Source of the DNA: Minisyncoccota bacterium
GTDB taxonomy: Bacteria; Patescibacteriota; Minisyncoccia; UBA6257; 2-01-FULL-56-20
Length of the DNA stretch: 64,000 nucleotides
Direction: 5' to 3'
Assembly: GCA_025449695.1 (NCBI GenBank)
Contig: JANWIW010000030.1
Location: 1,990-65,989 of the forward strand
Shown: positions 270 through 64,000 of the stretch, piece by piece
Numbering within the stretch: position 1 is the stretch's first letter
How the letters are laid out: every line of letters begins with the position of its first letter
The notes under the pieces: model-generated
The model's input: only the letters and a program-made list of their open reading frames with translations
What the model was told of the DNA's origin: nothing
Database searches by the model: none
Made by a program: the position numbers and the translations under genes

Positions 270-385
270 CTGTCATCCTGAGCCCCCCGCGAGCATACGC
301 GGGGCAGGCTCTGCAGCGGGCGAAGGGCCTTGCGCCACCGCTGAAGCTAAGGCGGCACGCGGTCGGGGTACTTCAGGATGACAGA
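270..385. repeat. MITE/REP-like palindromic repeat copy A (termini CTGTCATCCTGAG ... CTTCAGGATGACAG)
   Basis: Inverted termini are visible directly; the interior is GC-rich hairpin-forming sequence. It sits between the two tandem Cys-rich paralog genes. Confidence 0.7.
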
Positions 386-2197: not shown

Positions 2198-2240
2198 GAT
2201 TCTCATTAAACCTAAAAGCTTGCCTTGCAGCAAGCTTCCT

Positions 2241-2320
2241 TGTCATTCCGGGAGCCAGGCGGGGCTTGTCCGGAATCCAGTACGTGCATTCCTGGATCCC
2301 GGCTCGGGGCCGGGATGATA
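2241..2320. repeat. MITE/REP-like palindromic repeat copy B (TTGTCATTCCGGGAG ... GGCCGGGATGATA)
   Basis: Same terminal motif family as copy A. It contains the CCTGGATCCCGG core seen in copies D, G and H. Confidence 0.6.
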
Positions 2321-2333
2321 TAACGACTTTGTA

Positions 2334-12755: not shown

Positions 12756-12846
12756 AGAATAAATGCGCGGACATGCCATTCCCGCGAAGGCGGGAATTGA
12801 TTAGAGCGATGCTGGAGTGGATTCCCGCCTTCGCGGGAATGGCAAG
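12756..12846. repeat. pair of mirror hairpins (ATTCCCGCGAAGGCGGGAAT ... ATTCCCGCCTTCGCGGGAAT)
   Basis: Two 8-bp-stem hairpins with GAAG/CTTC loops in opposite orientation, between the nudix and exonuclease genes. The same TTCCCGC/GCGGGAA module occurs in repeat copy D. Confidence 0.6.
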
Positions 12847-20441: not shown

Positions 20442-20470
20442 AAGTAATAGTTAAGAGTGAGAAGGGTATT

Positions 20471-20546
20471 TGTCATTCCCGCCTCCGGGCGGGAATCCAC
20501 TCTTGCGCTGGATCCCGGGTAGCCTGACTGGGCTTCCGGGATGACA
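20471..20546. repeat. MITE/REP-like palindromic repeat copy D (TGTCATTCCCGCC ... CTTCCGGGATGACA)
   Basis: Termini plus the internal hairpin ATTCCCGCCTCCGGGCGGGAAT. Its 3' half is nearly identical to the 3' halves of copies G and H. Confidence 0.7.
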
Positions 20547-20558
20547 ATATCTTTCTGG

Positions 20559-23962: not shown

Positions 23963-24033
23963 TGGGGGATCGTCTAACGGTAGGACAGCGGCCTTTGGAG
24001 CCGTGAATCGGGGTTCGAATCCCTGTCCCCCAG
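23963..24033 (+). tRNA. tRNA-Gln (anticodon UUG)
   Basis: Folded by hand: acceptor UGGGGGA/UCCCCCA, D-arm GUCU-AACGGUA-GGAC, anticodon arm GCGGC-CUUUGGA-GCCGU (anticodon UUG), T-arm CGGGG-UUCGAAU-CCCUG, discriminator G. No encoded CCA. Confidence 0.8.
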
Positions 24034-24184
24034 CATTAGCTGTTGGCTTAGCGAGTACCCGAGCTTAGCAACCCTTATGCCCCGCCGAAGCTCGTCGGAG
24101 CGAAGGAGGGCCACCTTGAGCATAGTTCTGGGCGTCCGAGGAGGGTTGAAAGGTCCGATGTAATATATAATTAAGTTACTAGCT

Positions 24185-24562
24185 ATGGGAACATTTATCG
24201 AAACGAACGACACTCTGCAAATTACAAAAGAGCAAGGGTTCCCTGCCGAACTCGATTTGGATACTCACCTTAAAAATCCTTTCACGGTAAAAGATTTTGA
24301 AGGGAAAATCTTCGCTTTCAAAGACAAGCCCAATATAAGAGTTTATCAGCAACCGCCGGTCAGAAACTTTTTAGTAGAAAATAGAAATGACAAGTGGATA
24401 TATTGGGGCTTGATTCACATGTTGGAAGTTAACCATGACTATGGGGAAAAGGTGACTAGCGGCAAGTTTCGCATAATTTATATAAATACCCCAGAGGAAA
24501 TGAAAGTGGCGCATAGAATCACCGATCGACGTCCTGAAGCAGATTTCTTTGGGCATGACTAA
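24185..24562 (+). CDS. hypothetical protein (island)
   Basis: 125 aa in low-GC (about 40%) sequence immediately downstream of the tRNA. Confidence 0.55.
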   Translation: MGTFIETNDTLQITKEQGFPAELDLDTHLKNPFTVKDFEGKIFAFKDKPNIRVYQQPPVRNFLVENRNDKWIYWGLIHMLEVNHDYGEKVTSGKFRIIYINTPEEMKVAHRITDRRPEADFFGHD

Positions 24563-24580
24563 AGAGAAAAATGATCTGTT

Positions 24581-25255
24581 ATGCCAACAAACTTTTACGA
24601 TAGCGATGACTTTAAAAATATCGACTTCAAACCCTTAAATCCGTTGTATTATCCGACGGAGTACCAGCGCTACATCAAAGAAGAGACCGACCTCATTAAG
24701 CAACACATCAACGGCAAAACAGCACTTGAGGCTGGGGTCGGTATCGGCAGATTGATTCCCGATCTTGCCCCTATCGCAAAAGAGTTCGTCGGCATAGACA
24801 ACGCCGATCTCATGCTCCAGAATTCTAAAGAGCGAGCGGAAGGCTTCTCAAACGTCCGCCTTGTGAAAGGCGATCTTGAGAATCTTTCACACTTATTCCC
24901 GTCTAAATATTTCGATGTCAGCCTCTGTGTCTGGAATACTCTCGGCAACGTGAAAGATGAAGTCGTTGTGCTATCCGAACTCGCCAAAGTTACCAAGGAA
25001 AGAATTCTGGTTTCGGTACATCTAAAAGGCGCCTTAGAACAGAGGAAGAATTGGTATAAAACAGTTGGCCTTTCCATGGATGGAGTGGATGAGAAAAACG
25101 AGATTTTCTACAACACTAAGTCGGGACTCCGGTCGAAGGCGTATAGCCTTGAGGAGATCGAAGCTATTTCTAAAAACGCAGGGCTGGTCGTTGCAGATCA
25201 CAAGATCTTGGCTGGCGTTGTTCTTTGGGTTGAAATTGAAAGCTTGCCCAAGTGA
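24581..25255 (+). CDS. class I SAM-dependent methyltransferase
   Basis: Motif I LEAGVGIGRL and motif post-I/II; 224 aa. Confidence 0.75.
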   Translation: MPTNFYDSDDFKNIDFKPLNPLYYPTEYQRYIKEETDLIKQHINGKTALEAGVGIGRLIPDLAPIAKEFVGIDNADLMLQNSKERAEGFSNVRLVKGDLENLSHLFPSKYFDVSLCVWNTLGNVKDEVVVLSELAKVTKERILVSVHLKGALEQRKNWYKTVGLSMDGVDEKNEIFYNTKSGLRSKAYSLEEIEAISKNAGLVVADHKILAGVVLWVEIESLPK

Positions 25256-25328
25256 AACATGAGAACGAGCTATACTTATCCTATGAAGAAAAGAGTAAAA
25301 ACCCTCCGGCGACTCACTAAAATGACCC

Positions 25329-25399
25329 GTCCGAGGAGCCTCTTTCTGGTAAGATGAACTAACCCTCTGGGAGCCTTGCGGGGTAAGGGTTTTCAGAAG
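25329..25399 (+). promoter_or_regulatory. conserved 5' leader element, copy 1 (upstream of the SDR gene)
   Basis: GTCCGAGGAGCCTCTTTCTGGTAAG...CTCTGGGAGCCTTGCGGGGTAAGGGTTTTCAGAAG. A 70-nt paralogous element lies upstream of the AKR gene at 26949..27019 and shows covariation in a small hairpin (CTCTGGGAG vs CTTCGGGAG). Confidence 0.4.
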
Positions 25400-25448
25400 T
25401 ACGAGACCGGGAAGGCCAGCAGCAGCGAGATGGAGTAGAATCATATAT

Positions 25449-26135
25449 ATGAACTTGGAAAACAAGGTTGTTGTTATAACGGGAGGCAGCGAGGGTTTCG
25501 GTAAATCTCTCGCGAGAATGTTTTCCCACGAAAAATCCCGCCTAATAATTGCGGGCCATGAGCAGGCTAAGCTGGAGGATGCAGCAAAAGAGTTGGGAGC
25601 AGATTATCTACTGATTGACGTTACCCGTCCACAAGAGCTCAATAATTTGGCGGCATACGTTTCTGAAAAATATGGAACGATAGATATTTGGATAAACAAT
25701 GCCGGGATTCAGATTGCGCCCAGCATGGTGGAAAACGTAGATATTGAAAAACTACACCACTTATTCGAGGTTAATTTTTTCGGCTATTTTTACGGCTGTC
25801 AAAGCGCAATTCGGTGCATGAAAAAGCAGTCTCACGGATTAATAGTCAACGTGAACTCCACCGCAGGACTTGATGGCAAATCTGGACTTTCCGCTTATTC
25901 TTCTTCGAAATTCGCAACTAAGGGATTGACCGAATCTCTGCGGAAAGAGGTCGTCGATACACACATTCAAGTCTTTGCTGTATATCCCGGAGGAATGCAG
26001 ACGAACATCTACAAAGAAAAGTATCCGGACGACCTGAAAAACTATATGCTAACGGATGATGTTGCGAAAAAGGTGGTAGATAATCTCAAGATAGATCATC
26101 CCGAAAAGGACCTTATCCTTAAGCGGTCGGCGTGA
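25449..26135 (+). CDS. SDR-family oxidoreductase
   Basis: TGGSEGFGKSLA Rossmann motif and the YxxxK catalytic site (YSSSKFATKGL). Confidence 0.85.
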   Translation: MNLENKVVVITGGSEGFGKSLARMFSHEKSRLIIAGHEQAKLEDAAKELGADYLLIDVTRPQELNNLAAYVSEKYGTIDIWINNAGIQIAPSMVENVDIEKLHHLFEVNFFGYFYGCQSAIRCMKKQSHGLIVNVNSTAGLDGKSGLSAYSSSKFATKGLTESLRKEVVDTHIQVFAVYPGGMQTNIYKEKYPDDLKNYMLTDDVAKKVVDNLKIDHPEKDLILKRSA

Positions 26136-26165
26136 ATAAGGTTGGGCTAGATCCAAGAATCGTTC

Positions 26166-26300
26166 CGGTCACGTCCCACCTGCCCAGTCGATTACAGAAT
26201 CTAACCCGCTTTGCGGGTAGGATTCTGTTGAGTCCTGCGCTGCGCCCTTCGAAGCTTTACGATACCCCGCGAAGCTCGAAGAGCAAAGTGGGGCTACCTT
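26166..26300. repeat. island intergenic repeat, family X, copy 1 (contains the TCCCACCTGCCCAG motif and a strong hairpin at 26194..26228)
   Basis: About 85% identical over about 100 nt to 27920..28030. The hairpin is ACAGAATCTAACCCGC-TTTG-GCGGGTAGGATTCTGT. It sits between convergent genes, so it likely acts as a terminator. Confidence 0.6.
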
Positions 26301-26340
26301 GTGCATAGTATCGAGTGACCGAGACGCGTCAGTTCTCCCC

Positions 26341-26832
26341 TCAGCCCCGCCGCGCCGCCTCAATAGCAGCAACGTCGATTTTTGTCATTGTCATCATCGC
26401 TTCAAAGGCACGCTTTGCTTCTGCGCCGCCAACCGCAAGTGCGTCGATCAGCGTACGCGGCGTGATCTGCCATGATACTCCCCAGCGGTCTTTGCACCAG
26501 CCACATTGGCTTTCCTGACCTCCATTCCCGACGATCGCGTTCCAATAGCGATCTGTTTCTTCCTGATTGTCCGTCGCGATCTGAAAGGAAAATGCCTCAC
26601 TTTGTTTGAACGCTGGTCCACCGTTCAGACCAATACAAGGGATTCCAAAGACCGTGAACTCTACCGTGAGCACGTCGCCTTCCTTGCCATCCGGAAAATC
26701 ACTGGGCGCATGATTAACAGCCGTTACTTTACTATCGGGAAAAGTAGCGGCGTAAAAGTTTGCTGCGTTTTCTGCATCCTTGTCGAACCAGAGGCAAATT
26801 GTATTTTTTGGTTGCATGTTATTTTGTATCAT
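26341..26832 (-). CDS. VOC-family protein (PhnB/YjdN-like glyoxalase fold)
   Basis: N-terminal ICLWFDKDAENAANFYAATFPDSKV is typical of PhnB-like VOC proteins. Confidence 0.75.
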   Translation of the reverse strand: MIQNNMQPKNTICLWFDKDAENAANFYAATFPDSKVTAVNHAPSDFPDGKEGDVLTVEFTVFGIPCIGLNGGPAFKQSEAFSFQIATDNQEETDRYWNAIVGNGGQESQCGWCKDRWGVSWQITPRTLIDALAVGGAEAKRAFEAMMTMTKIDVAAIEAARRG

Positions 26833-26948
26833 TATTTTACCGCGCTTCGGGAGATTTGCAAACTAAGTAAAAGTATCTCATTGATCCCCGGCCGGGACGG
26901 GTCAACTCTCCCCTGCCGGTAGCGAGAGTATACCGCCATTTAGCATCC

Positions 26949-27019
26949 GTCCGAGGAACCTAGTTCTGGTAAACTTACAGAATCCTTCGGGAGACTTACG
27001 GGGTAATGATTTTACAAAA
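26949..27019 (+). promoter_or_regulatory. conserved 5' leader element, copy 2 (upstream of the aldo/keto reductase gene)
   Basis: GTCCGAGGAACCTAGTTCTGGTAAAC...CTTCGGGAGACTTACGGGGTAATGATTTTACAAAA. See copy 1. Confidence 0.4.
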
Positions 27020-27049
27020 TCCGCGATCGAGAAAGCCACCACTATAACC

Positions 27050-27913
27050 ATGAACCAGAAGATTCTAAAAAGCGGATTCTATCTTCCTGAAATTGGCTTA
27101 GGAACCGGAGGTGATCCCTCAAAAGCTGTCGGTTATGAAGAGCGGAAAAAAGCGCTTCAGATCGCACTTGATATGGGATACCGGCATATTGATTGCGCAG
27201 CGACATACTCCAATGGAGGGGTAGAAAAGTTCGTTGGGGAGGCCATTAAGCGCATTGATCGTTCGGAATTAATCCTTTCAACAAAAGTTTCTCCGCTCAA
27301 TCTTGCTTATGATGACCTAATTGAATCAGTGCAATTAAGCTTGGGTCGTTTAGGAGCAAGTTACGTCGATTTGTTGTACATCCATGCTCCTAATATGGAT
27401 ATTCCCTTATCCGAAACCATGCGAGCTATGGATACCGTGATAGATAATGGGATGGCAAAGCACCTGGCCGTGAGTAATTTCAACGTCGACCTTCTCATCA
27501 AAGCACAGTCGTTTACCAAGAATAAAATTGTCGCGAATCAGATCGAGTATAATCTTGCGACTCGTGAAAAAAGTCATTGCGAGGGGTGTGACAGTATGGA
27601 ATCGAAAATAATTCCATTCTGCCAGGAAAATGACATTCTCGTGGTCGCGTATCGACCCGTTGATCGAGGCTCTATCCTTGAACCCAACCAATTACTCGAT
27701 ACCTTGTCAAAAAAGTATGGGAAAACGAGAGCACAAATCGCCTTGAATTGGCTGATTTCACAAGACAACATCGTTACCATTCCACGCTCGGATGCATTCG
27801 CCCATCTTAGGGAAAACCTTGACGCAAGTGGTTGGTATTTAGACAAAGCAGACGTCGAACTCCTTAGAAGGGAGTATCCGCTTAGAGAGATTAAGTCCTA
27901 CCGTTATTATTAA
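27050..27913 (+). CDS. aldo/keto reductase
   Basis: 287 aa with the AKR signatures (DCAATYSNGG..., LYIHAPN) in a TIM-barrel. Confidence 0.85.
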   Translation: MNQKILKSGFYLPEIGLGTGGDPSKAVGYEERKKALQIALDMGYRHIDCAATYSNGGVEKFVGEAIKRIDRSELILSTKVSPLNLAYDDLIESVQLSLGRLGASYVDLLYIHAPNMDIPLSETMRAMDTVIDNGMAKHLAVSNFNVDLLIKAQSFTKNKIVANQIEYNLATREKSHCEGCDSMESKIIPFCQENDILVVAYRPVDRGSILEPNQLLDTLSKKYGKTRAQIALNWLISQDNIVTIPRSDAFAHLRENLDASGWYLDKADVELLRREYPLREIKSYRYY

Positions 27914-27919
27914 GCTCAC

Positions 27920-28060
27920 GAATCGCGTCCCACCTGCTCAGCCGATTACAGAATCTTACCCGCACAGCGGATTAGATTCTGTTGAGTCCTGCGCTGCGCC
28001 CTTCGAAGCTTTACGGCGTCCAGCGTAGCTTGAGCGGAATTGAAGCGAAGAAGGGAAGCC
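27920..28060. repeat. island intergenic repeat, family X, copy 2
   Basis: GCGTCCCACCTGCTCAGCCGATTACAGAATCTTACCCGC...GATTCTGTTGAGTCCTGCGCTGCGCCCTTCGAAGCTTTACG, nearly identical to copy 1. Confidence 0.6.
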
Positions 28061-28086
28061 TTGGCGAAGTGGGTCAGCAAAGAGAA

Positions 28087-28674
28087 TTAGCTGATCCCAA
28101 CGAGATAATATCTCCTTGTTCCCTCATTGGTCACCTGAACAGTAAATCCCTGTTCTGAAAATAGTCTCGATAAATTATCTGGGGAATAAAATACACTTCC
28201 CATTTTTAGGAACTTTTCCATGCGGACTATCACCCTCCCTCCAAAAGTTAAAGGGTTAAATTCCTCTACAATTACTGCACCTCCATACTTCAGAACCCTC
28301 TTGATTTCCTGAGCACATTGAACTTGATTCGGCAAATGATGGAACACATCTACCATAATAATTTTATCTATTGAGTTGTCGGCAAAAGGTAACTTTTCGG
28401 CAGTTCCGATCAGGCAGGCAATTCCATTGTGCTTGCGGCATTGCTCGATCATTTTCTCTGATGGATCGACCACCGTAACTTTCTTTACCTTCCCTGTTAA
28501 AAACTTGGCTACTCTGCCCGTACCGCCTCCTACATCAACAACTTCATCTTCAACGCTAAACTCTACGACAGAAGTAAGTTTCCTAAAAGTAGCTTTTGCT
28601 CCGATATGAACCTTCTCATATATCGGCGCAAGAACGTCAAAATAGTTGGGCACACCCCTAATGATATACTTCAA
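28087..28674 (-). CDS. class I SAM-dependent methyltransferase
   Basis: Motif I VVDVGGGTGRVAKFL and Methyltransf_11-like DVFHHL. Confidence 0.75.
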   Translation of the reverse strand: MKYIIRGVPNYFDVLAPIYEKVHIGAKATFRKLTSVVEFSVEDEVVDVGGGTGRVAKFLTGKVKKVTVVDPSEKMIEQCRKHNGIACLIGTAEKLPFADNSIDKIIMVDVFHHLPNQVQCAQEIKRVLKYGGAVIVEEFNPLTFGGRVIVRMEKFLKMGSVFYSPDNLSRLFSEQGFTVQVTNEGTRRYYLVGIS

Positions 28675-28843
28675 CGATCACGGTTCCAATCGCATCCCAC
28701 CTGCCCGGCATTAGTGAAAGTAAGTCGGGTTTCCGTTCTTTTGCGGGCTCCGCAAGCAAGGATTTGAATAATAATCCTCCCCTTACGAACAGGAAGGACC
28801 TCGACCGAAGTCGAGGCCCCACATGCTTTGCCGCTGTGGATTG

Positions 28844-40572: not shown

Positions 40573-40737
40573 TCTTCCCGTTTGTCATCCCGGCTCCCTC
40601 CTTCGCTCCTTCTGCGCTTAGCCTTCGAAGGACACGCAAAAGCTCCAACTTCGCCATAGGCCTACGGCTGGACACGTCCTCCTTCGCTATAGGCTACGGC
40701 TGGACACGTACGGAAGGGCATCGCAAGGCCGGGATAA
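40573..40737. repeat. MITE/REP-like repeat copy F with an internal 33-bp tandem duplication
   Basis: Starts TTGTCATCCCGGC and ends GCCGGGATAACA (degenerate). Inside is CTTCGCCATAGGCCTACGGCTGGACACGTC repeated twice. Confidence 0.55.
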
Positions 40738-40833
40738 CAAAATAAACGGGGCTACAGCGCTAGAAAGACGGGTGGACCGCTGATCTCCGGCTGGCAAGTG
40801 CGCGGGAGGAGAGATTGGCTACACCGCAGCGGT

Positions 40834-51172: not shown

Positions 51173-52219
51173 ATGACTATGTATTCCGACCTTAAAGTCG
51201 CGGGCCCGAAGCGTGGCGAGATAGAGATAACCGGCCAGATACCTCCGGCTGACCTGGAAGGCTACTATACTCAGGTCCTGGAGGAAATGCGCAAGGATTT
51301 CTCGATGCCGGGGTTCCGCAAAGGCAATGTGCCGATGGAAACCTTCCAGCCCCACGCGAACCAGGGCCATGCCCTGGAGGAGGCGGCAGAGCTTGCCCTC
51401 GCGGACGCATATCCCGCGATCATAGAAGAGCGCGCCCTGGAGACGCTCGGACGGCCGGAAGTAACGATCACCAAGCTCGCCCTCGGCAATCCGATGGAAT
51501 TCAAGATAGTCGTCGGCGCAAGGCCGGTGATAAAGCTGCCGAACTATAAGAAGATCGCCGGCGAAGTCCGCGCTGCCCGGAAGCCCATGGAGGTGACCGA
51601 TGCCGACGTGGAAGAGGTCGTCACTTCGCTCCGCAAGCTGCGTGCGGCGCCTTCCGTGTCCCAAGATGCCAAGAAGGATGGTGCCCCCACGCCGGAAGAG
51701 CTGCCGGAGCTGACCGACGAATTCGTGCGTACCTTGGGAAGCTTCGAGACTATATTGGATTTCAAGGTCAAGCTGCGCGAGAACCTGAAGCTCGAGAAGG
51801 AAACCGAATCGAAGCGCGTCCTCAGAGAAGCGATTGCCGCCAAGCTCGCGGAGAGCGTAAAGATGGAGCTGCCGGAACGCTTCGTGGAAGGAGAAGCGGA
51901 GGCCATGTTCGAGCAGCTGCGGCACGATCTTGAGCACGCGAACCTCTCCCTGGAGGATTATCTGAAGCGTTCCAATACCACGGAAGAAACCGTCCGCAAG
52001 AGCCAGCGGGAATACGCCGAGCGGCAGATCAGGACGCGCCTGATCCTGGAGGAGGTCGCCAAGGCGGAATCCATCGAGCCGAACGCCGATGAGGTGCGGA
52101 TGGAGTCGGAACTCCTGCGCGAACGGAACCCGGAACTGGAACCGGAGCGCATCGCGCGATACGTCACGAACCTCCTGCGGAACGAGAAAGTGCTGGAATT
52201 TTTGGAAAAAGCAGAATAG
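51173..52219 (+). CDS. tig: trigger factor lacking the PPIase (FKBP) domain
   Basis: The N-terminal ribosome-binding domain carries the signature PGFRKGNVP. EVTDADVEEVVTSLRKLRA matches the linker, and the C-terminal arm domain is present. At 348 aa it has no room for an FKBP domain. Confidence 0.75.
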   Translation: MTMYSDLKVAGPKRGEIEITGQIPPADLEGYYTQVLEEMRKDFSMPGFRKGNVPMETFQPHANQGHALEEAAELALADAYPAIIEERALETLGRPEVTITKLALGNPMEFKIVVGARPVIKLPNYKKIAGEVRAARKPMEVTDADVEEVVTSLRKLRAAPSVSQDAKKDGAPTPEELPELTDEFVRTLGSFETILDFKVKLRENLKLEKETESKRVLREAIAAKLAESVKMELPERFVEGEAEAMFEQLRHDLEHANLSLEDYLKRSNTTEETVRKSQREYAERQIRTRLILEEVAKAESIEPNADEVRMESELLRERNPELEPERIARYVTNLLRNEKVLEFLEKAE

Positions 52220-52232
52220 GGAGATCGTGCCT

Positions 52233-52416
52233 GTCATCCCGGCCTTGCCGCCTTTTGGCACGGCTTCGCCAAGGGCGAGGCTTCCGTGAGAGGCGAGGCT
52301 CGCTTGAAGCAGCGCCTCCGGCGGGATACGAGACCCAAGCTTGTCATTCCGGCCTTGAGCCGGGATCCAGTATTTTCCTGGATCCCGGATAGCCCCGCTG
52401 GGCTTCCGGGATGACA
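52233..52416. repeat. MITE/REP-like repeat copy G (tandem composite of two elements)
   Basis: CTGTCATCCCGGCC...CAAGCT then TGTCATTCCGGCC...GGGCTTCCGGGATGACA. It is about 95% identical over 184 bp to copy H, which lies about 960 bp downstream. Confidence 0.85.
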
Positions 52417-52553
52417 AGGCCATTTCCAATCACGATTCAGTCATTAAGTATCTCATGGAAATTTCCTTGAAAGCGAGGAACGGGAATCCAGAGGCTCTCA
52501 AATCAAACTGCCCGACGCGAAGGCCGGGCAGCTGACTAATGCGTGGTTCGAAG

Positions 52554-53027
52554 TTACGACGGCCACGAGACGTCGGCGGCGGCGAGATAGTGGTCCAGAT
52601 CCTTCTGCGGGACCAGGCTCATCACGCCCTCGCGAAGGACATGAAGCTCTTCCCACACGGCCTGCACATTTCTGGGACCGAAATTCATCCGCTTCAACTT
52701 GGTCGAATACACTACGGTCCGGTTGCCATCCGTGCCATAGAATTGGCACTCTATCTCAATCCTCGATGCGGAATCGCTCCGAAACACGATCCACACGCAC
52801 TTCCGTCCCTCAAATTCGAAGCGATACCCTCCCGAGAGGCGGCTGTTCTGGACGAGATTGCCCTCACACGCGGTGACGTTGATGGCTTGAGACAGCTCGT
52901 CATGCAACAGATCGAACATCAGGGTCACCATGATGTTCACCTCGTTTCTCATCCTGTCGATCGCATATGCACCCCTGACGAGCTTGAGTGTGATCTCTCT
53001 ACTGTTGTTTCCGATCGCGACTTTCAT
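52554..53027 (-). CDS. hypothetical protein flanked by repeat copies G and H
   Basis: ORF 52554..53108; the likely start is MKVAIGNNSREITLKL. No family cue. Confidence 0.5.
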   Translation of the reverse strand: MKVAIGNNSREITLKLVRGAYAIDRMRNEVNIMVTLMFDLLHDELSQAINVTACEGNLVQNSRLSGGYRFEFEGRKCVWIVFRSDSASRIEIECQFYGTDGNRTVVYSTKLKRMNFGPRNVQAVWEELHVLREGVMSLVPQKDLDHYLAAADVSWPS

Positions 53028-53192
53028 TTCTGCCTCCAGAATGCCCCCTCGGGCTTTTAAGTCGTGATTGCTTTTTCTACCAAGCACACGCTTGGCTTCT
53101 CTTTGCATTATACAAATTTAGACTATATTTGTCAAACTTTAGCCTACCCTCCCGGCTTTGGCGCGCTACTTGCGTTGTAATCTGAAAGCATT

Positions 53193-53376
53193 GTCATCCC
53201 GGCCTTACCGCCTTTTGGCACGGCTTCGCCAAGGGCGAGGCTTCCGTGAGAGGCAAGGCTCTCTAGAAGCAGCGCCTCCGGCGGGATACGAGACCCAAGC
53301 TTGTCATTCAGGACTTGAGCCGGGATCCAGTATTTTCCTGGATCCCGGATAGCCCCGCTGGGCTTCCGGGATGACA
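53193..53376. repeat. MITE/REP-like repeat copy H
   Basis: Near-identical direct repeat of copy G. Confidence 0.85.
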
Positions 53377-53411
53377 AGGCTATCTCCGATCACCGTTACC
53401 TAGTTATTCTC

Positions 53412-53750
53412 TCATCGCGCAAACCGCTGCAGTTCCCGTACTATCTCTGCGGGTAAAGGATCTCCGGGCTTGGTCACCCCCGGGTATCGCCATGCGGACA
53501 CGACCCGGCGCTCGCCCGGACGCTCGGAGATCATGACCCATATCTCCTGCGTCCACTCGGCGGCCTTGCCGGCCACCGTTCGTCTCACCGAAGCAGGCTG
53601 CATCATCGCTACCGTGTCCTCGGCTATTCCCTCCTCGACGCGCTGGGGCGAATGGATGACCCGCCGCACCCGGGCCTCAGAAAGGCGGTATTGCCTCATT
53701 TTGGCCTGGCTATGCGCGGTCCAGACGAGCTTCTTCGAGGTGAACTTCAT
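53412..53750 (-). CDS. DUF4258-like small protein
   Basis: 112 aa. LVWTAHSQAKMRQYRLSEARVRRVI resembles the DUF4258 HAxxRMxxR core. Family assignment is from memory only. Confidence 0.45.
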   Translation of the reverse strand: MKFTSKKLVWTAHSQAKMRQYRLSEARVRRVIHSPQRVEEGIAEDTVAMMQPASVRRTVAGKAAEWTQEIWVMISERPGERRVVSAWRYPGVTKPGDPLPAEIVRELQRFAR

Positions 53751-53753
53751 CCC

Positions 53754-54581
53754 CTATACGCCGAGCCCCTGCGGCTCCTTGTCTGCTTTTGCATTTTTCA
53801 TTTTGGAAACCGGCCTAGCCTTTGCGCCTTCCTCTCTCGCTGCACGCGCTTCGAAATACGCGCAATGATCGCAATCCTTGCCCTTCGGCGGGATGATATC
53901 GGCGGCAAGCGCGGAGCGCAGCTTCAGGAGCACGCTCTCCACCCAGGTGTCATTCCCCGTATACGGGATCACTTTGATATCGAACTCCAATCTGGCGTCG
54001 AAAGCCTCCTTGTCGGCATTACCGTTGCAATAAACGAAATAACCCGTACTCGAGACCCTGAACCCGTTCCTGCGGAAAAGCCATTGATATATCTCCATCT
54101 GACGCTTATAGCCGTCCTGCCATTCCGCATCCAGGCTGACCTCCTGGCTCTTGGAAGTGGCTTTGTAATCAACGATGTGCAATTCGCCGGAGGGAGCGAC
54201 CCAGACATCGTCGATCCCGCCGCGCACCAGGAGATTGGTGGGTTCATGGAAATATCGTATCCCCCGCTTCAATGAATCCCGCCATTCATCAAGCCTCTCA
54301 TCCGCGTAGGGCACCGCGTCTATGCCATAGGCCTTCATGAGCGGATGAGCGGAACCTCTCGCGCGATGGACATCGAACTCTTTCTTGAGAAGAGTGTCCA
54401 CGGCAGTGTTCAGGCTGAACGGAAAGCCCGGCGGGCGGCCCGTCCCCAGGCGCTTATCCAGGTAAAAACAACGGGGGCAGTCTACAAATAAATCTATGCC
54501 GCTCCTGCTCACTATGAAAGGCTCGTCCGACGAGGGGTCGAAGATACCTCTCGTCTTTACGGGATTATAATATTTGCTCAT
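53754..54581 (-). CDS. PD-(D/E)XK nuclease, Cas4/RecB-like with Cys cluster
   Basis: Motif II/III GGIDDVWV...ELHIVDYKATSK. Cys pairs are near both termini (VDCPRCFYL, KDCDHCAY), consistent with a Cas4/AddB-type Fe-S site. Confidence 0.7.
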   Translation of the reverse strand: MSKYYNPVKTRGIFDPSSDEPFIVSRSGIDLFVDCPRCFYLDKRLGTGRPPGFPFSLNTAVDTLLKKEFDVHRARGSAHPLMKAYGIDAVPYADERLDEWRDSLKRGIRYFHEPTNLLVRGGIDDVWVAPSGELHIVDYKATSKSQEVSLDAEWQDGYKRQMEIYQWLFRRNGFRVSSTGYFVYCNGNADKEAFDARLEFDIKVIPYTGNDTWVESVLLKLRSALAADIIPPKGKDCDHCAYFEARAAREEGAKARPVSKMKNAKADKEPQGLGV

Positions 54582-54721
54582 CTTCGTAACATTTTCCCGC
54601 GAAACCAACGCGATTGCAATCAGCGGCAAAACGACTTCGATTGACCGGTTACTTAAGCTATGGCATAAATAGACCGGTTCAGGATCGGGCCTTATCCCGA
54701 AATACGAGCGGGGAGACAGAT

Positions 54722-55096
54722 ATGGAAGCTCATGAGATCCTTTTTGTCCTCATGGAGAGGCTTGTCGAAATCGCCCGTCGTCCTCTCGGACAACGGGAGG
54801 TGCGCTATGTGGCCCACAGCATCTCGTTCGAGATGACCGCCCTGCAGCACGAAGGCTCCTCCTTCTATGTGGGCGTGCGGCGCATTTCGGGCAGCGACCG
54901 GTCGGAGCTCTTGCTCTGGCCCGGCGAGCCCGCGCATGGACAAGAGATCCTTCAACTCTTGGCCGACGCGGGCGACGTGAGGGTCGATATGGTGGGCGCA
55001 ATGAAGGCCGGCGACCCGGCCTTCGCCGTAGCGGCCGCCATACTGGGGCGCCTGGCGATGCTCCGGCGGCAGGAAGCCGCGGCGTTCAGGACGTGA
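54722..55096 (+). CDS. hypothetical protein
   Basis: About 125 aa from MEAHEILFVLMERL. It is followed by a strong terminator hairpin. Confidence 0.4.
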   Translation: MEAHEILFVLMERLVEIARRPLGQREVRYVAHSISFEMTALQHEGSSFYVGVRRISGSDRSELLLWPGEPAHGQEILQLLADAGDVRVDMVGAMKAGDPAFAVAAAILGRLAMLRRQEAAAFRT

Positions 55097-55108
55097 CGCC
55101 GGATCAAT

Positions 55109-55150
55109 CGAACGTGCAGACCCCCCGTCTGCACGTTCCGCGTTTTCATG
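55109..55150 (+). terminator. rho-independent terminator-like hairpin
   Basis: GAACGTGCAGAC-CCCCC-GTCTGCACGTTC followed by CGCGTTTTCATG. Confidence 0.6.
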
Positions 55151-57076: not shown

Positions 57077-57823
57077 CTATTGCACGGTCAGGGTGCGGGT
57101 GATCAATATCGCCCCGCCCTGGGTCACGCGCAGGGTGTAGATACCGCTCTGTACCGTTACCGTCCAGGGGAACGAATTGCTCGCCGTCTGCCCGAGATAA
57201 GTGACGAGGCCATTTGCGCCGACAAGCTCTATGTTTGCACTACCCATACTGCTATTGAAGGGCGACCAAAGGATCGTGTAGAAGATGCCCCTCGTCACCA
57301 CGCTCACGTCCAGGTTGTTGCTATTCAAGACCTGGATCTGAGTGACCGGTTGGACCGGGTAAGCGCTGCCGCCGCAGTGGGAAGAGTACTGTCCGGAACC
57401 ATACTGGTTGTACGGGTACTGATTGGAGGGATACTGGTCATATTGATACTGGTTGTAACCGTACCCGTAGCAGCACTGATAGCTGTACTGCTGATAAGGA
57501 TATTGGTTGTATTGGTACTGGTTGTTGTACTGGTACTGGTTATACTGCGGGCAGTTGTTGTACTGGTAATTATTATTGTTTGTGTTCGAACACTGCCAAG
57601 ACTGCGTAGAGACGCCGTTCAGGTAACAGTAAGGGGCGCTCGTGGTTTGCTGTTGACCGGGAACGACCTGCTGCAGGTAGGCCGAGTTCTGGTTCACGTA
57701 TTGGATCGTCTGATTGGCGAGCGCGACCGCCTGGACCTGAGTAGGCCCCGGAATAGTGGGGTTATTGCTTACTGCGGCGAGCAGCGAATAAGCCAATTGG
57801 AGCAAAACGGCAGCGAAGGTCAT
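57077..57823 (-). CDS. secreted protein with Q/N/Y-rich low-complexity (prion-like) region and C-terminal beta domain
   Basis: Signal peptide, then repeats NNNNYQYNNCPQYNQYQYNNQYQYNQYPYQQYSYQCCYGYGYNQYQYDQYPSNQYPYNQY, then a roughly 100-aa C-terminal domain. The region has locally lower GC. Confidence 0.7.
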   Translation of the reverse strand: MTFAAVLLQLAYSLLAAVSNNPTIPGPTQVQAVALANQTIQYVNQNSAYLQQVVPGQQQTTSAPYCYLNGVSTQSWQCSNTNNNNYQYNNCPQYNQYQYNNQYQYNQYPYQQYSYQCCYGYGYNQYQYDQYPSNQYPYNQYGSGQYSSHCGGSAYPVQPVTQIQVLNSNNLDVSVVTRGIFYTILWSPFNSSMGSANIELVGANGLVTYLGQTASNSFPWTVTVQSGIYTLRVTQGGAILITRTLTVQ

Positions 57824-61252: not shown

Positions 61253-63088
61253 TCATAGGAACTCTTCTTTATAACATTGTTCGCAGTAAATGGCCTCCGG
61301 CGCCCCCGGCGGGTAGGTGGTCTCAAAACGGTTCGCGCACGGCGCATCCCCGTGAGAATGCGTAACAGTGTTCACGTAGGCATCTCCGCCGTTCTTTCCC
61401 CGGCACATGCAAGCTCGGGAATAGAGCCGGAACTCGTTTACCCATTGCAGCCGCTCGCGGTGCCGGCAGTTCGGGCAAAGCCGCGGCAGGGCGATGTGCA
61501 TGGTCCGGTAGAACTGCAGCTCTTCAGGGGTTATGCGGAAAGCGGTCGTGCATTCGTGGTCGCAGGTCCCTTTCCCCTTCGTCCCAACTTCGCTCAAACT
61601 GCGATGGGCACGCAAGGCCTCGGGAGACGCGGCGTGGGCGCAGCCGATCACCTGGTCCACGATGGAGTTCTCGACGTCCGCGATGTGGTCGGGCAGGTCT
61701 CCGGGATGCATGGAGATCTCATAAGCTCTATCCGGCGGATCGCGCCATGCCAGGCCTTCGGCGAGGACTTGTTCCCTTGTCTTCGGGTACCACTTAAGGG
61801 CGATAGTCTCGTTGTAGGCGTATGCGGATAGTTCCATAGGAAAGAACTCGCCGAACCCGTAGGTCCGGCCTTTCTTGTCCACGTACGGCATCTCGCCCAT
61901 GTGGGCCACGATCTTCTCCCGCAAGGCGTGGTACTCCTTCTCGGAATACTGCTTGTTCAGGATACAGTGCTTCTTGTTGCGAATGGTGATGCAACCGAAT
62001 AGGTTTACCGAGTTAGGGGAGAAATCGCAGTACATGATGTCCCTGGATCCCCGGCTGCCCGCCGTAAAAGCGCACCGCTGGGCCTGGGTGACCCCATAGA
62101 CCTCATAGAGCAGCTCGGAGGTGTCGCCGCCGCCTGTTACGTCATAACTGTCCTTAAGATTCAGTCCTCCAACATAGATGTACTTGCAGTTCTGCACGCC
62201 GTCCAGAGTGGAAAAGCACATCTGGCAGTCCTTGGTGGAGCGTATGACATCCCCTTTCACGTTCTGGCTGTTCAGGACATGGGCGTAGCGCCGGGGCGTG
62301 GCCAGGCAAAGGGAGCGGAACTTCTCCTTGGCCTCTTCCAGGCGCTTGTAGCTGCCCAAGTCCCAATAGGCCATCTCCTTGGCATACTCTTCTTTGGAGA
62401 GCTGTTCGTTGAACAGGCGGTATTTCTGTTTGCGCATGTTCACGCAACCGAAGCAATCCGAACACCCGACGCAATTGAAGAGGAACGACGAATCCAGACA
62501 GTCGTCCGAGAAATAGGCGTAACGCGTGCGGTATAGCCGGTCGGAGTGGACGGCCTCGTAGGCATGGTCGGAATTGTCGGTCACATAAGCGTCGAAGGAA
62601 TGCCGCGAGAAGAGCAGCGCGTCCGCGTATTGGGAGTCCTCCGAAAAGTAGCTCCAGAAGGTCAGGTAGCAGTTCTTGCAACTGCGGCATGCATGGGTGA
62701 ACTCGCTGTTCACGCAGTTGATACTCGTAAGGCCCGGCCGCGGCACCGCCTCCATGAGGTCGCGGTACTGCGCGAAAAAAGGACGGGAGAAATCGTAGTC
62801 CCGGCCGTAGTCCAGGGCATCCCACTTGTCCGACCACCAGCACTCGCGGCAATAGACCGTGAACGGCCCGCCTGGCGCGTGGATGCTGATCATGGACCGG
62901 CCGCACAGCCTGCAGGTGTCCCGGTAGAGGGTACGGTCCTCCCGCCAGGCCGAACGGCGCATGTCCCGGCAGGGCGGGCACCAGGTCGGGGCAGGCACGC
63001 CGATACTCTTATAGAACCCGATATCGGCGGGTTCGATCGTGAAGTCTTGCCCGCAGTTCGCGCATGTCCGCGTCCCGGTCTCCGTCAT
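61253..63088 (-). CDS. Cys-rich multi-zinc-ribbon protein paralog
   Basis: The start was set at MTETGTRTCANCGQDFTIEPADIGFYKSIGVPAPTWCPPCR. It has the same architecture and internal repeats (..NEQLSKEEYAKE / ..LNKQYSEKEYHAL, NCVGCSDCFGC) as 392..2197. Antisense ORFs 62154..62981 and 62546..63451 are rejected. Confidence 0.7.
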   Translation of the reverse strand: MTETGTRTCANCGQDFTIEPADIGFYKSIGVPAPTWCPPCRDMRRSAWREDRTLYRDTCRLCGRSMISIHAPGGPFTVYCRECWWSDKWDALDYGRDYDFSRPFFAQYRDLMEAVPRPGLTSINCVNSEFTHACRSCKNCYLTFWSYFSEDSQYADALLFSRHSFDAYVTDNSDHAYEAVHSDRLYRTRYAYFSDDCLDSSFLFNCVGCSDCFGCVNMRKQKYRLFNEQLSKEEYAKEMAYWDLGSYKRLEEAKEKFRSLCLATPRRYAHVLNSQNVKGDVIRSTKDCQMCFSTLDGVQNCKYIYVGGLNLKDSYDVTGGGDTSELLYEVYGVTQAQRCAFTAGSRGSRDIMYCDFSPNSVNLFGCITIRNKKHCILNKQYSEKEYHALREKIVAHMGEMPYVDKKGRTYGFGEFFPMELSAYAYNETIALKWYPKTREQVLAEGLAWRDPPDRAYEISMHPGDLPDHIADVENSIVDQVIGCAHAASPEALRAHRSLSEVGTKGKGTCDHECTTAFRITPEELQFYRTMHIALPRLCPNCRHRERLQWVNEFRLYSRACMCRGKNGGDAYVNTVTHSHGDAPCANRFETTYPPGAPEAIYCEQCYKEEFL

Positions 63089-63122
63089 GGTCTGATTGTA
63101 GCAAGTTGCTATACTTTGCCCT

Positions 63123-64000
63123 ATGAAGCCCATCCAGATCATCGTCCCGGGCGGCCTCAATACCGATTTTGTCGCGCAAGGCGTGAGAAAGCTCGCCGGC
63201 AAGGGCGAGCTCGTGACCGGCAAGGAGCTGAAGATAGGTCCCGGCGGCAAATCGAGGAACGTGGCCCAGATGATCGCCACGCTCACAGGACCGGGGAAAG
63301 TGGCTATGATCGGCAGGACGACCAAGGACCCCTTCGGTCTTTATCGGGTGCCTATGGACGCCCTGAAAGACGCCGGGGTAAACACCGCATACGTGGAGGT
63401 GCTCGAGTTCACCGGCACTTTCCCCGGCATCGCCCTCATCCCCGTGGATGAGGAGGGTAACAACCAGATCTATCTTTTACCGGGCGTGAACAGCGGATTT
63501 TCCCCTGCCGGCATCGATGCAGCGGAGAAGCTCTTCCAAGCGGCGGGGAGCTCGGGCATGCTGGCCCTTTCCCTGGAATTACCGATCGAGACGGCGCTCC
63601 GTGCTATGGACCAGGCTGTGAAACACGGCCTCCGGATCATCCTTGACCCGGGCGGCATCGAGCCCGGCGCGGATCATGGACGCCTCCTTAGCAAGGATAT
63701 CTTCCTCCTCAAACCGAACGAGTACGAAGCCGAAATATTGAGCGGCGTTACCGTTACGGATCTCAAAAGCGCTGGAAAGGCGGCTTCCCTTCTCATGCAA
63801 AAAGGCCCGCAAAACGTCCTGATCACGGCCGGGGTAGATGGCGCTTATCTTTTCACGCCGGAAGCGGGACAGCACATCCCGGTCCCGGACATCGCTTCCA
63901 GCTCGGGCGAAAAAGATGAGACTGGCTGTGGCGACCAGGCCATGGCCGCCATCTGCGCCATGATCGCGGAGGGCAAAGATGTCGCGGAGGCCGCGAGGCT
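63123..64000 (+). CDS. PfkB-family sugar kinase (ribokinase-like), 3'-truncated by the window end
   Basis: Hand translation MKPIQIIVPGGLNTDFV...GPGGKSRNVAQMIATL...DETGCGDQAMAAICAM shows the PfkB signatures. It is absent from the ORF track because no stop falls in the window. Confidence 0.8.
   Translation, partial: MKPIQIIVPGGLNTDFVAQGVRKLAGKGELVTGKELKIGPGGKSRNVAQMIATLTGPGKVAMIGRTTKDPFGLYRVPMDALKDAGVNTAYVEVLEFTGTFPGIALIPVDEEGNNQIYLLPGVNSGFSPAGIDAAEKLFQAAGSSGMLALSLELPIETALRAMDQAVKHGLRIILDPGGIEPGADHGRLLSKDIFLLKPNEYEAEILSGVTVTDLKSAGKAASLLMQKGPQNVLITAGVDGAYLFTPEAGQHIPVPDIASSSGEKDETGCGDQAMAAICAMIAEGKDVAEAAR

Follow-up and report, generated by a model that had tools for sequence, protein, structure and literature searches.

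The two near-identical repeats that lie just downstream of the trigger factor gene, tig, are composite elements that belong to a dispersed family of intergenic hairpin repeats bounded by TGTCAT…ATGACA, and the orphan gene between them was most likely placed there by repeat-mediated recombination. The window, i.e. the whole 64-kb stretch of DNA that was analyzed, belongs to the core chromosome of a bacterium of the Patescibacteria (CPR, class Paceibacteria) and is not an island, and only the 960-bp unit of repeat plus orphan gene looks accessory. The explanation taken as a whole, in which dispersed repeats of the SRM/NTS type, an orphan gene positioned by recombination and an independent nuclease operon share a core chromosome, is considered probable. 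The features on which it rests are listed in Table 1.

Table 1. Features of the repeat-bracketed cassette, its neighbors and the other members of the repeat family (positions are those of the window).
Feature	Position	Strand	Remarks
tig (trigger factor)	51173..52219	+	Pfam Trigger_N + Trigger_C; TIGR00115 1.1e-56
Repeat copy A	52231..52417	.	187-nt composite hairpin element, ends TGTCATCCCGG + CCGGGATGACA
Possible decayed SRM remnant	52440..52491	+	GTCATT … GGGAATCCAG; read from sequence; low confidence
Terminator-like hairpin of orphan gene	52499..52531	-	CTGCCCGG…CGGGCAG, then TTTGATTTG (minus strand)
Orphan gene	52554..53027	-	157 aa; host-like codons, rare small-protein family
Shine-Dalgarno GGAGG	53033..53037	-	5 nt upstream of orphan ATG 53027
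σ70 consensus promoter of orphan gene, TTGACA-17-TATAAT	53107..53135	-	perfect, predicted from sequence
Repeat copy B	53191..53377	.	187 nt, 6 differences vs copy A
Conserved Paceibacteria small protein	53412..53750	-	112 aa; second gene of the putative nuclease operon
Stand-alone Cas4/RecB-like PD-(D/E)XK nuclease	53754..54581	-	275 aa; PDDEXK_1 4.2e-12
Divergent hypothetical ORF	54723..55096	+	124 aa from ATG 54723; mechanical ORF start 54614
Intrinsic-terminator-like hairpin	55110..55147	+	GAACGTGCAGAC-ccccc-GTCTGCACGTTC, then T-run; read from sequence
Family member E1	271..383	.	TGTCATCCTGAG … CTTCAGGATGACA; 8 nt past stop of ORF 392-2233
Family member E2	2240..2321	.	82 nt; 12 nt past stop of M17 aminopeptidase gene
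Family member E3	12773..12841	.	NTS-like inverted pair GCCATTCCCGCGAAGGCGGGAAT … ATTCCCGCCTTCGCGGGAATGGC
Family member E4	20470..20547	.	78 nt; 11 nt past stop of S41 protease gene
Family member E5	40582..40740	.	159 nt; family termini, different interior

The left border of the cassette is formed by tig, whose product of 348 residues has the N- and C-terminal domains only; its earlier identification from the sequence is upheld by the TIGR00115 match. Between the tig stop codon and copy A there are 11 nt. The direct repeat (52232-52433 and 53192-53393) aligns over 202 nt at 96% identity with a start-to-start distance of 960, so that the repeats which the sequence-only reading had placed on both sides of an orphan reading frame are real, and no other repeats of comparable identity are present in the 64-kb window. 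Within the element proper, 6 of the 186 positions compared are mismatched. The same two sequences that end copy A form inverted termini at both ends of each copy. Copy A consists of module 1 (52231-52340) and module 2 (52341-52417), the latter being an inverted pair of SRM/NTS-type hairpins. Comparison of folding with shuffled sequences gives z-scores of -5.5 and -3.9, and the copy A region scores -5.5.

To the left of the element, the two copies have unrelated flanks (5% identical). On the 3' side, the element is followed by a weakly homologous tail, in which first 13 of 16 and then 15 of 21 positions are identical and which in copy A reaches to about 52438. Divergence between the copies is thus 3.2% in the element body versus 29% in the adjoining tail (Fisher p = 3e-4), and the body may be kept near-identical by constraint or by gene conversion. 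Copy B lies past the stop codon of the small gene, at a distance of 34 nt, and is 55 nt beyond the promoter of the orphan gene. The possible SRM remnant sits between copy A and the terminator of the orphan gene.

Seven elements of the family, all intergenic, are found in the window, and six of them begin 8-34 nt past a stop codon. The basic unit runs from (C/T)GTCAT through a stem-loop to ATCCAG, and usually occurs in inverted pairs with the boundaries given above. The terminus motif has 13 matches in the window, where 1.7 are expected. The published SRM pattern, HGTCWYN(0-2)YYVSBRHN(0-5)WNVSBRGN(0-2)RNCYNB, is matched 4 times as opposed to 0.6 times in dinucleotide shuffles, and three of the four matches fall within copies A and B (52385-52416 on the minus strand, 53302-53330 on the plus strand and 53345-53376 on the minus strand); some units, such as that at 52343-52370, are one position short of the pattern. 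Element E4 is 81% identical to module 2 over 59 nt. Outside the window, two Wolfebacteria loci, L008 and L010, carry related elements, among them the classic TGTCATTCCCGCGAAGGCGGGAATCCAG form, and the right-half motif occurs on more than 120 metagenome contigs, which range from 38 to 72% in GC content and are up to 2.17 Mb long; no sequence in the metagenome collection matches a 25-nt probe taken from module 1. The scatter of such repeats over intergenic sites, seven in 64 kb and more in other genomes, largely deprives them of the role of marking one mobile module, in which the sequence-only reading had cast them.

Among 53 distinct metagenome variants, the first variable pair of the hairpin is Watson-Crick in 50, with four pair types represented, whereas shuffling gives a mean of 20.7 and a maximum of 29. 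This covariation shows that the predicted hairpin is under selection. Located just 3' of stop codons, the elements most likely represent 3'-end hairpins that would terminate transcription or stabilize transcripts, and they most likely serve also as dispersed homology for recombination. The terminator consensus scan finds no clear T-run in them, so that it is solely their position that points to termination.

Judged by their motifs, the repeats are elements of the same type as NTS and dRS3 of Neisseria and the wider group of Ssn-related motifs. The definitions of NTS, SRM and dRS3, the NTS-gene-NTS layout and a comparison of NTS with REP-type elements are found in PMC11893778, where SRMs are described as targeted by Ssn, a family of GIY-YIG ssDNA nucleases, and CPR bacteria are not mentioned. 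Common to both systems are the oriented (C/T)GTCAT leader, the semi-palindromic stem-loop, the ATCCAG end and the presence of the motif on both sides of a gene. The elements in the window are likewise extragenic, clustered and enriched over shuffles, and one metagenome copy (locus L146) lies 26 nt from a true GIY-YIG ORF. The stem, however, is ATCCCGG/CCGGGAT and not ATTCCCGC/GCGGGAAT, the host belongs to the CPR, the units are built into a two-module composite of 187 nt, and the bracketed gene is not ssnA. No Ssn gene is seen within the window, and a motif scan finds no GIY-YIG ORF either there or in the CPR loci.

The REP, BIME and REPIN elements are short extragenic palindromes located 3' of genes, which occur as inverted pairs and as mosaics of variable modules. 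The repeats in the window are also post-gene palindromes in inverted pairs able to form one long hairpin, and they too are mosaics of variable modules, but their motif has no relation to the REPs of enterobacteria or pseudomonads, and no RAYT (IS200/IS605-type Y1 transposase; Y1_Tnp) is present among the 38 window ORFs scanned. In the intergenic mosaic elements or 'minimal mobile elements' of Neisseria, accessory genes occupy repeat-bounded blocks between conserved genes, and transformation followed by homologous recombination is regarded as the route of their exchange. The cassette resembles these elements, as they are generally described, in that an accessory gene resides in an intergenic repeat-bounded block, and differs from them in that a single gene is involved, in a different phylum, and is known from sequence alone.

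The space between the two copies is occupied by a self-contained expression unit with a predicted σ70 promoter, a Shine-Dalgarno sequence, the 157-residue gene and a terminator. The promoter is the sole 12/12 σ70 match in the window, and a 12/12 promoter precedes one of the remote homologs (P0244) as well. A longer ORF extending to 53108 would start within the -10 box of the promoter that drives it, and the model starting at ATG 53027 is therefore better; with GGAGG upstream of this ATG, the reading frame called in the sequence-only reading on the minus strand holds. The terminator was spotted by eye, and the consensus scan did not report its hairpin. The GC3 value of 0.74 is host-like, and the codon score is positive in this frame only. 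No close homolog of the protein was found. There are four remote homologs; among 1.8 billion representatives only three, all of them small proteins, are found; P0243-P0245 are full-length and 29-32% identical. The family has an invariant IDRM..EV motif and two cysteines, and the protein has no match in Pfam, NCBIfam, PADLOC or PHROG. On the strength of its coding signals and family, the orphan is a genuine gene and a rare one. It is absent from every relative's locus compared, and this absence together with the lack of close homologs supports an accessory status of the repeat-bracketed gene.

The repeat-gene-repeat layout most likely arose through homologous recombination between the repeat copies. 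Recombination could have inserted or relocated the orphan gene, perhaps after DNA uptake; alternatively, its outcome may have been a duplication of the repeat around the gene. An empty site, in which tig, one repeat and the small gene would follow each other without the orphan, was not found; the closest genomes compared have 75-81% protein identity, and their gene order differs beyond the nuclease-small gene pair. It is possible, if unlikely, that SRM/NTS hairpin composites in CPR bacteria act more generally as portable recombination arms that pick up, duplicate and move individual genes equipped with a promoter, the orphan cassette being one such capture. Genes would then travel between intergenic sites or between cells, CPR bacteria taking up DNA via competence-like pili. 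The mechanism might be independent of Ssn, or might employ an unrecognized enzyme specific for hairpins, for which the orphan protein and the Cas4-like nuclease are possible candidates.

The orphan, small and nuclease genes are all encoded on the minus strand, and the putative nuclease operon therefore reads towards the repeats; the co-directional pair described in the sequence-only reading is retained with its direction corrected. The assignment of the second protein as a Cys-cluster PD-(D/E)XK nuclease is borne out. It matches PF12705 (PDDEXK_1) with 47 bits, the cut-off being 22, and has the D, D/ExK and QxxxY motifs. Invariant in 18 sequences are C35, C38, C237 and C240, which form a CxxC…CxxC pattern, the DD pair (D124/D125), the DYK triplet (D138-Y139-K140) and Q161…Y165. 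More than 8000 homologs exist, and the best 120, at 65-81% identity, are spread across Paceibacteria lineages. With the Cas4/RecB nucleases (PF12705, PF01930, TIGR00372) the protein has in common the D…D-x-K and Q…Y motifs as well as four invariant cysteines, but the scores stay below the Cas4 cut-offs (24.6 bits versus 65 for TIGR00372 and 15 versus 22.7 for PF01930), PADLOC reports sub-threshold Cas4 similarity only, the neighbors are not cas genes, and no CRISPR array was found in the window. The cysteines of Cas4 and AddB are arranged 1+3, and those of this protein 2+2. As judged from these comparisons, the gene is a conserved, class-wide, stand-alone core gene. Its product would probably process DNA ends or ssDNA in repair or in the handling of imported DNA.

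The small protein has 563 homologs and is represented in 319 species genomes, all from a single class. Its similarity to DUF4258 (PF14076) is weak (E=0.012; 16.3 bits versus a cut-off of 25), and sub-threshold DUF4258 matches were obtained for 12 of 22 family members, with a best E-value of 0.001. The AF2 model (pLDDT 87) has the predicted topology β-α-α-β-β-β-β-α, which resembles that of the RelE/ParE (BECR) toxins; its best structural matches, all weak, are HigB2, RelE, HP0894 and Cami1, and it also weakly matches a phage protein with the annotation Colicin D. The predicted fold may thus be RelE/HigB/DUF4258-like (BECR-type), and the name DUF4258-like given in the sequence-only reading is apt as far as weak matches and fold are concerned but falls short of the Pfam threshold. 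DUF4258 is listed as a toxin family of the RelE/ParE superfamily with the gene order antitoxin-toxin (PMC11980606). The small protein differs from that description in its sub-threshold score, its class-wide conservation, its housekeeping contexts and the lack of an antitoxin: no cognate antitoxin gene is seen adjoining it, the neighbors being nuclease, PMT, PEBP, PGI and similar genes.

The closest relatives have the small gene immediately behind the nuclease gene, and the pair is flanked by pilus genes (T2SSE/T2SSF/N_methyl) and Pur_DNA_glyco. In one locus (L001) a ComEC-type gene is located about 4 kb downstream, and in another (L034) an Exo_endo_phos gene separates a nuclease paralog from the small gene. 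Of 80 species loci, only about 25 have the small gene behind a nuclease, and in about 55 it stands beside varied housekeeping genes without one, so that joint action of the two proteins is not implied. Where they are paired, the putatively RelE-like protein would be a conserved partner co-transcribed with the nuclease, in an operon independent of the orphan cassette. Beyond this operon lies the divergent ORF, for which ATG 54723 is probably the start and which has no family match in Pfam, PADLOC, NCBIfam or PHROG; the terminator ascribed to it earlier is present as a GC-rich, 12-bp hairpin with a T-run. A compositional island is located at 24.0-28.7 kb of the window, and the region of the cassette and operon has no comparable anomaly.

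Some properties of the repeats are those of MITEs, namely terminal inverted repeats (here 11-12 nt), a length of 70-190 nt, dispersal with variable interiors and no coding capacity. As copies A and B are directly oriented around one gene, they might form a composite transposon, in which two non-autonomous copies mobilize the orphan gene by means of a transposase encoded elsewhere. Target-site duplications are, however, found neither at the borders of the seven elements nor around the composite, and a Pfam scan of 38 window ORFs (including all those of ≥250 aa) detects no transposase, integrase or reverse transcriptase. Furthermore, the termini are halves of covarying hairpin motifs, like those of REP and NTS and unlike transposase-binding ends, and the homologous tail extends outside the right terminus. 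A transposon is thus an unlikely source of the cassette. The lack of a reverse transcriptase also bears on the idea of a diversity-generating retroelement, with copy B as the template repeat and copy A as the variable repeat. Such retroelements are frequent in CPR bacteria, and five of the six differences between the copies have A in copy B and another base in copy A. Yet no more than 5 of 34 A positions are affected, and the changes look like decay, since five of the six are simply GC→AT and two of these disrupt a hairpin in copy B. Each copy is, in addition, a palindromic SRM composite, and copy A is outside any coding region, because tig ends at 52219. This idea is effectively refuted.

The layout of the cassette mirrors NTS-ssnA-NTS (PMC11893778), and the orphan protein, which belongs to no known family and has a very strong predicted promoter, might bind or cut the flanking hairpins and spread with the repeat as a non-GIY-YIG analog of that system. 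It is hard to reconcile this with the three remote homologs for which DNA is available, as they have no such hairpins nearby and sit among housekeeping genes; a nuclease motif is absent, and the orphan model is unreliable (pLDDT 46) and hence gives no fold support for a nuclease. Such a role is most improbable. A toxin-antitoxin or defense module, with the RelE-fold protein as toxin and the nuclease as partner or effector, is suggested by the resemblance of the fold to the RelE, HigB and YafQ toxins and to the Colicin D-annotated phage protein, by the DUF4258 matches and the toxin status of that family (PMC11980606), and by the weak Cas4 similarity of the nuclease. Both proteins are, nevertheless, highly conserved throughout the class, unlike the patchy and fast-evolving genes of such systems, the small gene usually has housekeeping neighbors, its product has no antitoxin-like partner and no PHROG match, and composition is normal. 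PADLOC finds no complete system; the four other proteins give nothing beyond the weak matches of the nuclease. A defense function of the pair is therefore very unlikely. The single mobile or defense module into which the sequence-only reading had joined the cassette with the DUF4258-like protein and the nuclease is accordingly not supported: the latter two are conserved, syntenic core genes in the relatives, and the placement outside the core genome applies to the repeat-bracketed orphan only.

A Cas4 homolog without CRISPR in a toxin-like neighborhood resembles a defense island, and the removal of this false lead leaves conserved core genome in its place. The NTS/dRS3/SRM repeats, recently tied to ssDNA nucleases and to the control of transformation in Neisseria, are extended here to the Patescibacteria, a group dependent on DNA uptake. 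The clean repeat-gene-repeat unit provides a possible test case for the movement of genes by repeats. Two uncharacterized families appear worth study: the strongly conserved stand-alone Cas4-like nuclease of Paceibacteria with its partner of putative RelE fold, and the rare small proteins of the orphan type with their perfect consensus promoters.

The direct repeat pair at 52232-52433 and 53192-53393 (202 nt, 96% identity, 960 nt apart) has the highest identity of any long repeat in the 64-kb window. The sequence-only reading had described two near-identical repeats around a hypothetical ORF, accompanied by tig, a DUF4258-like gene, a PD-(D/E)XK nuclease gene and a divergent ORF with a terminator-like hairpin, and all of these are indeed there. 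The orphan ORF, the small-protein gene and the nuclease gene are all carried on the minus strand. The trigger factor encoded by tig is only 348 aa long; its N- and C-terminal domains were found, and the PPIase domain between them was not detected.

Of the 186 positions compared in the bodies of the two repeat copies, A and B, 6 differ. Beyond the body runs a homologous tail that is identical at 13 of 16 and then at 15 of 21 positions, and the left flanks bear no relationship to each other. The divergence is 3.2% in the element body and 29% in the adjoining tail (p = 3e-4). This suggests that constraint or gene conversion keeps the body similar; neutral duplication, if very recent, would leave no such gap. 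The spacer was also considered as a decayed tandem duplication of the downstream genes; this was rejected because neither its flanks nor any other part of the window is homologous to it.

Features of the repeat-bearing locus, related elements in the window and promoters of the orphan family
Feature	Position	Size and strand	Remarks
Further element	271-383		terminus motif
Further element	2240-2321		terminus motif
NTS-like variant element	12773-12841		
Further element	20470-20547		terminus motif
Further element	40582-40740		terminus motif
tig	51173-52219		left neighbour of copy A
Repeat copy A	52231-52417	187 nt	inverted termini, TGTCATCCCGG and CCGGGATGACA
Orphan gene	52554-53027	157 aa, (-)	between copies A and B
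Repeat copy B	53191-53377	187 nt	inverted termini, TGTCATCCCGG and CCGGGATGACA
Small protein	53412-53750	112 aa, (-)	DUF4258 match sub-threshold, E = 0.012
Nuclease	53754-54581	275 aa, (-)	PDDEXK_1, 4.2e-12
Divergent ORF	beyond nuclease		followed by 12-bp GC-rich hairpin and T-run
Promoters of P0244 homologue	L088:151-179, L089:125-153, L090:127-155		perfect TTGACA-17-TATAAT

The tig-orphan locus is not alone in carrying the terminus motif: a search of the window tolerating one mismatch gave 13 occurrences, where 1.7 were expected. The repeat is made up of two modules. Module 2 (52341-52417 in copy A) consists of two inverted units, each with GTCAT followed by a stem-loop and ATCCAG, and matches the element at 20470-20547 with 81% identity across 59 nt. 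In six of the seven window elements a stop codon lies 8-34 nt before the element start, so that the elements are placed at gene 3' ends, matching the typical site of REP/BIME-like hairpins just past the stop codon. Wolfebacteria loci contain related elements, the classic TGTCATTCCCGCGAAGGCGGGAATCCAG form among them, and the right half (CTGGATCCCGG…CCGGGATGACA) turned up in over 120 metagenome contigs; the ones examined had 38-72% GC and were up to 2.17 Mb long. The first variable stem pair is Watson-Crick in 50 of the 53 distinct metagenome variants, with all four pair types represented; shuffling gave a mean of 20.7 and a maximum of 29. The hairpin is therefore under selection for pairing. 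The exact module-1 sequence had no match in the metagenome search, and the sole report of an Rfam scan for known RNA families was a tRNA-Gln.

A second repeat-gene-repeat layout is found at the window start, where elements 271-383 and 2240-2321 bracket a 613-aa ORF (392-2233, minus strand) with no Pfam match. Its 690-aa paralogue, with a weak treble-clef zinc-finger match, is at the opposite window end (61253-63325, minus strand), and the two share DNA segments at 70-77% identity. A third, zinc-ribbon-like ORF extends past the window start.

The GTCAT-stem-loop-ATCCAG architecture is that of the Neisseria NTS repeat (CGTCATTCCCGCGMAVGCGGGAATCYRG, with dRS3 inside), and wider Ssn-related motifs (SRMs) of the same architecture are the cleavage sites of small GIY-YIG ssDNA nucleases (PMC11893778). 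The published degenerate SRM pattern (PMC11893778) has three matches within copies A and B, and four in the whole window against 0.6 in dinucleotide shuffles. Matching the pattern, forming hairpins and being extragenic and multi-copy, the window repeats can be counted as new additions to the SRM/NTS/dRS3 class. They also behave like REP/BIME/REPIN mosaics, but no RAYT was seen in the window. A motif scan found no Ssn/GIY-YIG gene in the window; the same scan recovered a genuine one in L146, a metagenome contig. There, a canonical Ssn-type GIY-YIG ORF of 90 aa (367-636) lies 26 nt from an SRM hairpin (313-341) of the CTGGATCCCGG…CCGGGATGACA type, which agrees independently with the described association of SRMs with adjoining ssn genes (PMC11893778). 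SRM hairpins flank the small RelE-like gene in three other loci (L008, L010 and L068). Their density near this gene appeared 3-fold enriched in a raw comparison, but the intergenic-region test was not significant (4/124 vs 14/691, p = 0.29), and a specific tie was not upheld.

The bracketed gene is self-contained and rare. A word-indexed search of 5.8 billion proteins matched the orphan protein only to itself, and exhaustive HMMER over 1.8 billion representatives added just three homologues, all of them small and remote: P0243, P0244 and P0245. By BLASTP over nearly the full length, P0243 and P0245 are 32% and 29% identical to the orphan; all four proteins have an invariant IDRM..EV motif and two cysteines in common. 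Several sequence features make the gene look genuine and native. Codon usage resembles that of the host in this frame alone (GC3 0.74), a GGAGG Shine-Dalgarno sequence precedes the start at 53027, the longer mechanical ORF starts within the -10 box, and a hairpin and T-rich tract follow the stop codon. Its promoter, TTGACA-17-TATAAT at 53135-53107, is the sole 12/12 consensus match in the window, and the homologue in L088-L090 has a 12/12 promoter too. The perfect promoters of the window orphan (53107-53135) and of P0244, distant members of the family, both start TTGACAAATA, and each precedes a 5' leader of about 50-75 nt, which could be regulatory. The product is probably a small, highly expressed cytoplasmic protein.

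The orphan homologues lie in housekeeping contexts, one with enolase, tRNA-Ser, L31 and RF-1 and another upstream of an S41 protease. A phage or plasmid origin of the orphan was rejected: tblastn against 50,697 phage records gave nothing, the plasmid search a chance match only, and PHROGs no match. Family and defence searches were likewise empty. The single-sequence structure model (pLDDT 46) is unreliable and unusable. PDB profile searches with the orphan, nuclease and small-protein families gave nothing credible, the best match (A4, E = 0.0044) being to an unrelated terpene synthase chimera.

The adjacent operon is conserved: relatives of the nuclease number more than 8000, and the best 120 (65-81% identity) belong to Liptonbacteria, Wolfebacteria, Lloydbacteria and other Paceibacteria. 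C35, C38, C237, C240, D124/D125, D138-Y139-K140, Q161 and Y165 are invariant. It scores under the Cas4 cut-offs and is a PD-(D/E)XK family member outside Cas4 by curated thresholds and context; no relative of solved structure is detectable by sequence. The small protein has 563 homologues and no Pfam assignment, and occurs in 319 species-representative genomes, all 80 listed being Patescibacteria. Its structure model is confident (pLDDT 87) and most resembles, weakly, HigB2, RelE, HP0894, Cami1 and a phage protein annotated Colicin D. DUF4258 is listed within the RelE/ParE BECR superfamily (PMC11980606), and the modeled RelE-type likeness, one of fold only, would fit the sub-threshold DUF4258 matches.

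In the three closest relatives the nuclease gene is directly followed by the homologous small gene; on one side the pair is bordered by pilus genes and on the other by a 3-methyladenine glycosylase gene. In the loci L001 (1-12816) and L003 (1-9525) the genes directly before the pair are of type IV pilus type (T2SSE, T2SSF, N_methyl pilin-like), and L001 also has a ComEC-type gene about 4 kb further downstream, past the glycosylase gene. These neighbors hint at a link to the handling of taken-up DNA. About 25 of 80 species loci have a nuclease gene ahead of the small gene, either the orthologue (71-81%) or a paralogue-like one (37-49% identity to the window protein; L007-L085). This suggests two paralogous nuclease lineages, both prone to pair with the small gene. 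At the other loci its neighbors are a PMT glycosyltransferase, PEBP, PGI or ExoIII-family gene. The nuclease and the small protein thus behave as core genome.

Of four other explanations, all of low confidence, a composite MITE transposon ranks first, but target-site duplications are absent, the ORFs scanned include no transposase, and the termini covary as hairpins. Next comes a TA or defence pair, which is contradicted by conservation and context. PADLOC recognized no system, there is no CRISPR array, and the composition of the region is unremarkable. The small mobile or defence-type module proposed from sequence can be retained at most for the 960-bp repeat-plus-orphan unit, and fails for the conserved, core-like nuclease and small protein.

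It is less probable still that the orphan protein acts on its flanking hairpins, as no SRM hairpins are found near its homologues. Least probable is a DGR, a reading prompted by the A present in copy B at five of the six differences; it was rejected, since none of the 38 window ORFs scanned encodes a reverse transcriptase, copy A lies in non-coding sequence, and GC→AT decay would explain the changes.

A better island candidate than this region lies at 24000-28700. These 4.7 kb or so have 43-48% GC (53% in one 500-nt bin) in surroundings of about 59%, and look like a horizontally acquired island. The stretch starts directly after the tRNA-Gln gene (23963-24034), encodes methyltransferases, an SDR, an aldo/keto reductase and a 3-dmu-9_3-mt-family gene, and contains a 111-nt direct repeat (26169-26279 and 27923-28033, 85% identity). 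Elsewhere, a minus-strand ORF of 248 aa (57077-57823) is Q/N/Y-rich and of low complexity, with short tandem repeats at 57401-57541 and no Pfam match.

The locus belongs to a core part of the chromosome and is built as an intergenic mosaic of hairpin elements of the SRM/NTS type. These elements probably serve as 3'-end hairpins and as dispersed homology. Recombination between copies probably created the repeat-gene-repeat arrangement, either by inserting or relocating the gene unit or by duplicating the repeat around the gene. The nuclease probably works on DNA ends or ssDNA, as part of repair or to handle DNA that has been imported, and the small RelE-like protein would be its frequent, though not obligatory, partner. 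Repeat-armed gene capture connected with DNA uptake is unlikely. Taken as a whole, the locus is nothing out of the ordinary for a CPR chromosome that bears repeats, and it offers some useful leads. As Patescibacteria are unmentioned in the paper defining SRMs (PMC11893778), the finding is a modest extension of the class: CPR genomes carry SRMs, and a near-identical composite pair of them brackets a non-ssn gene.
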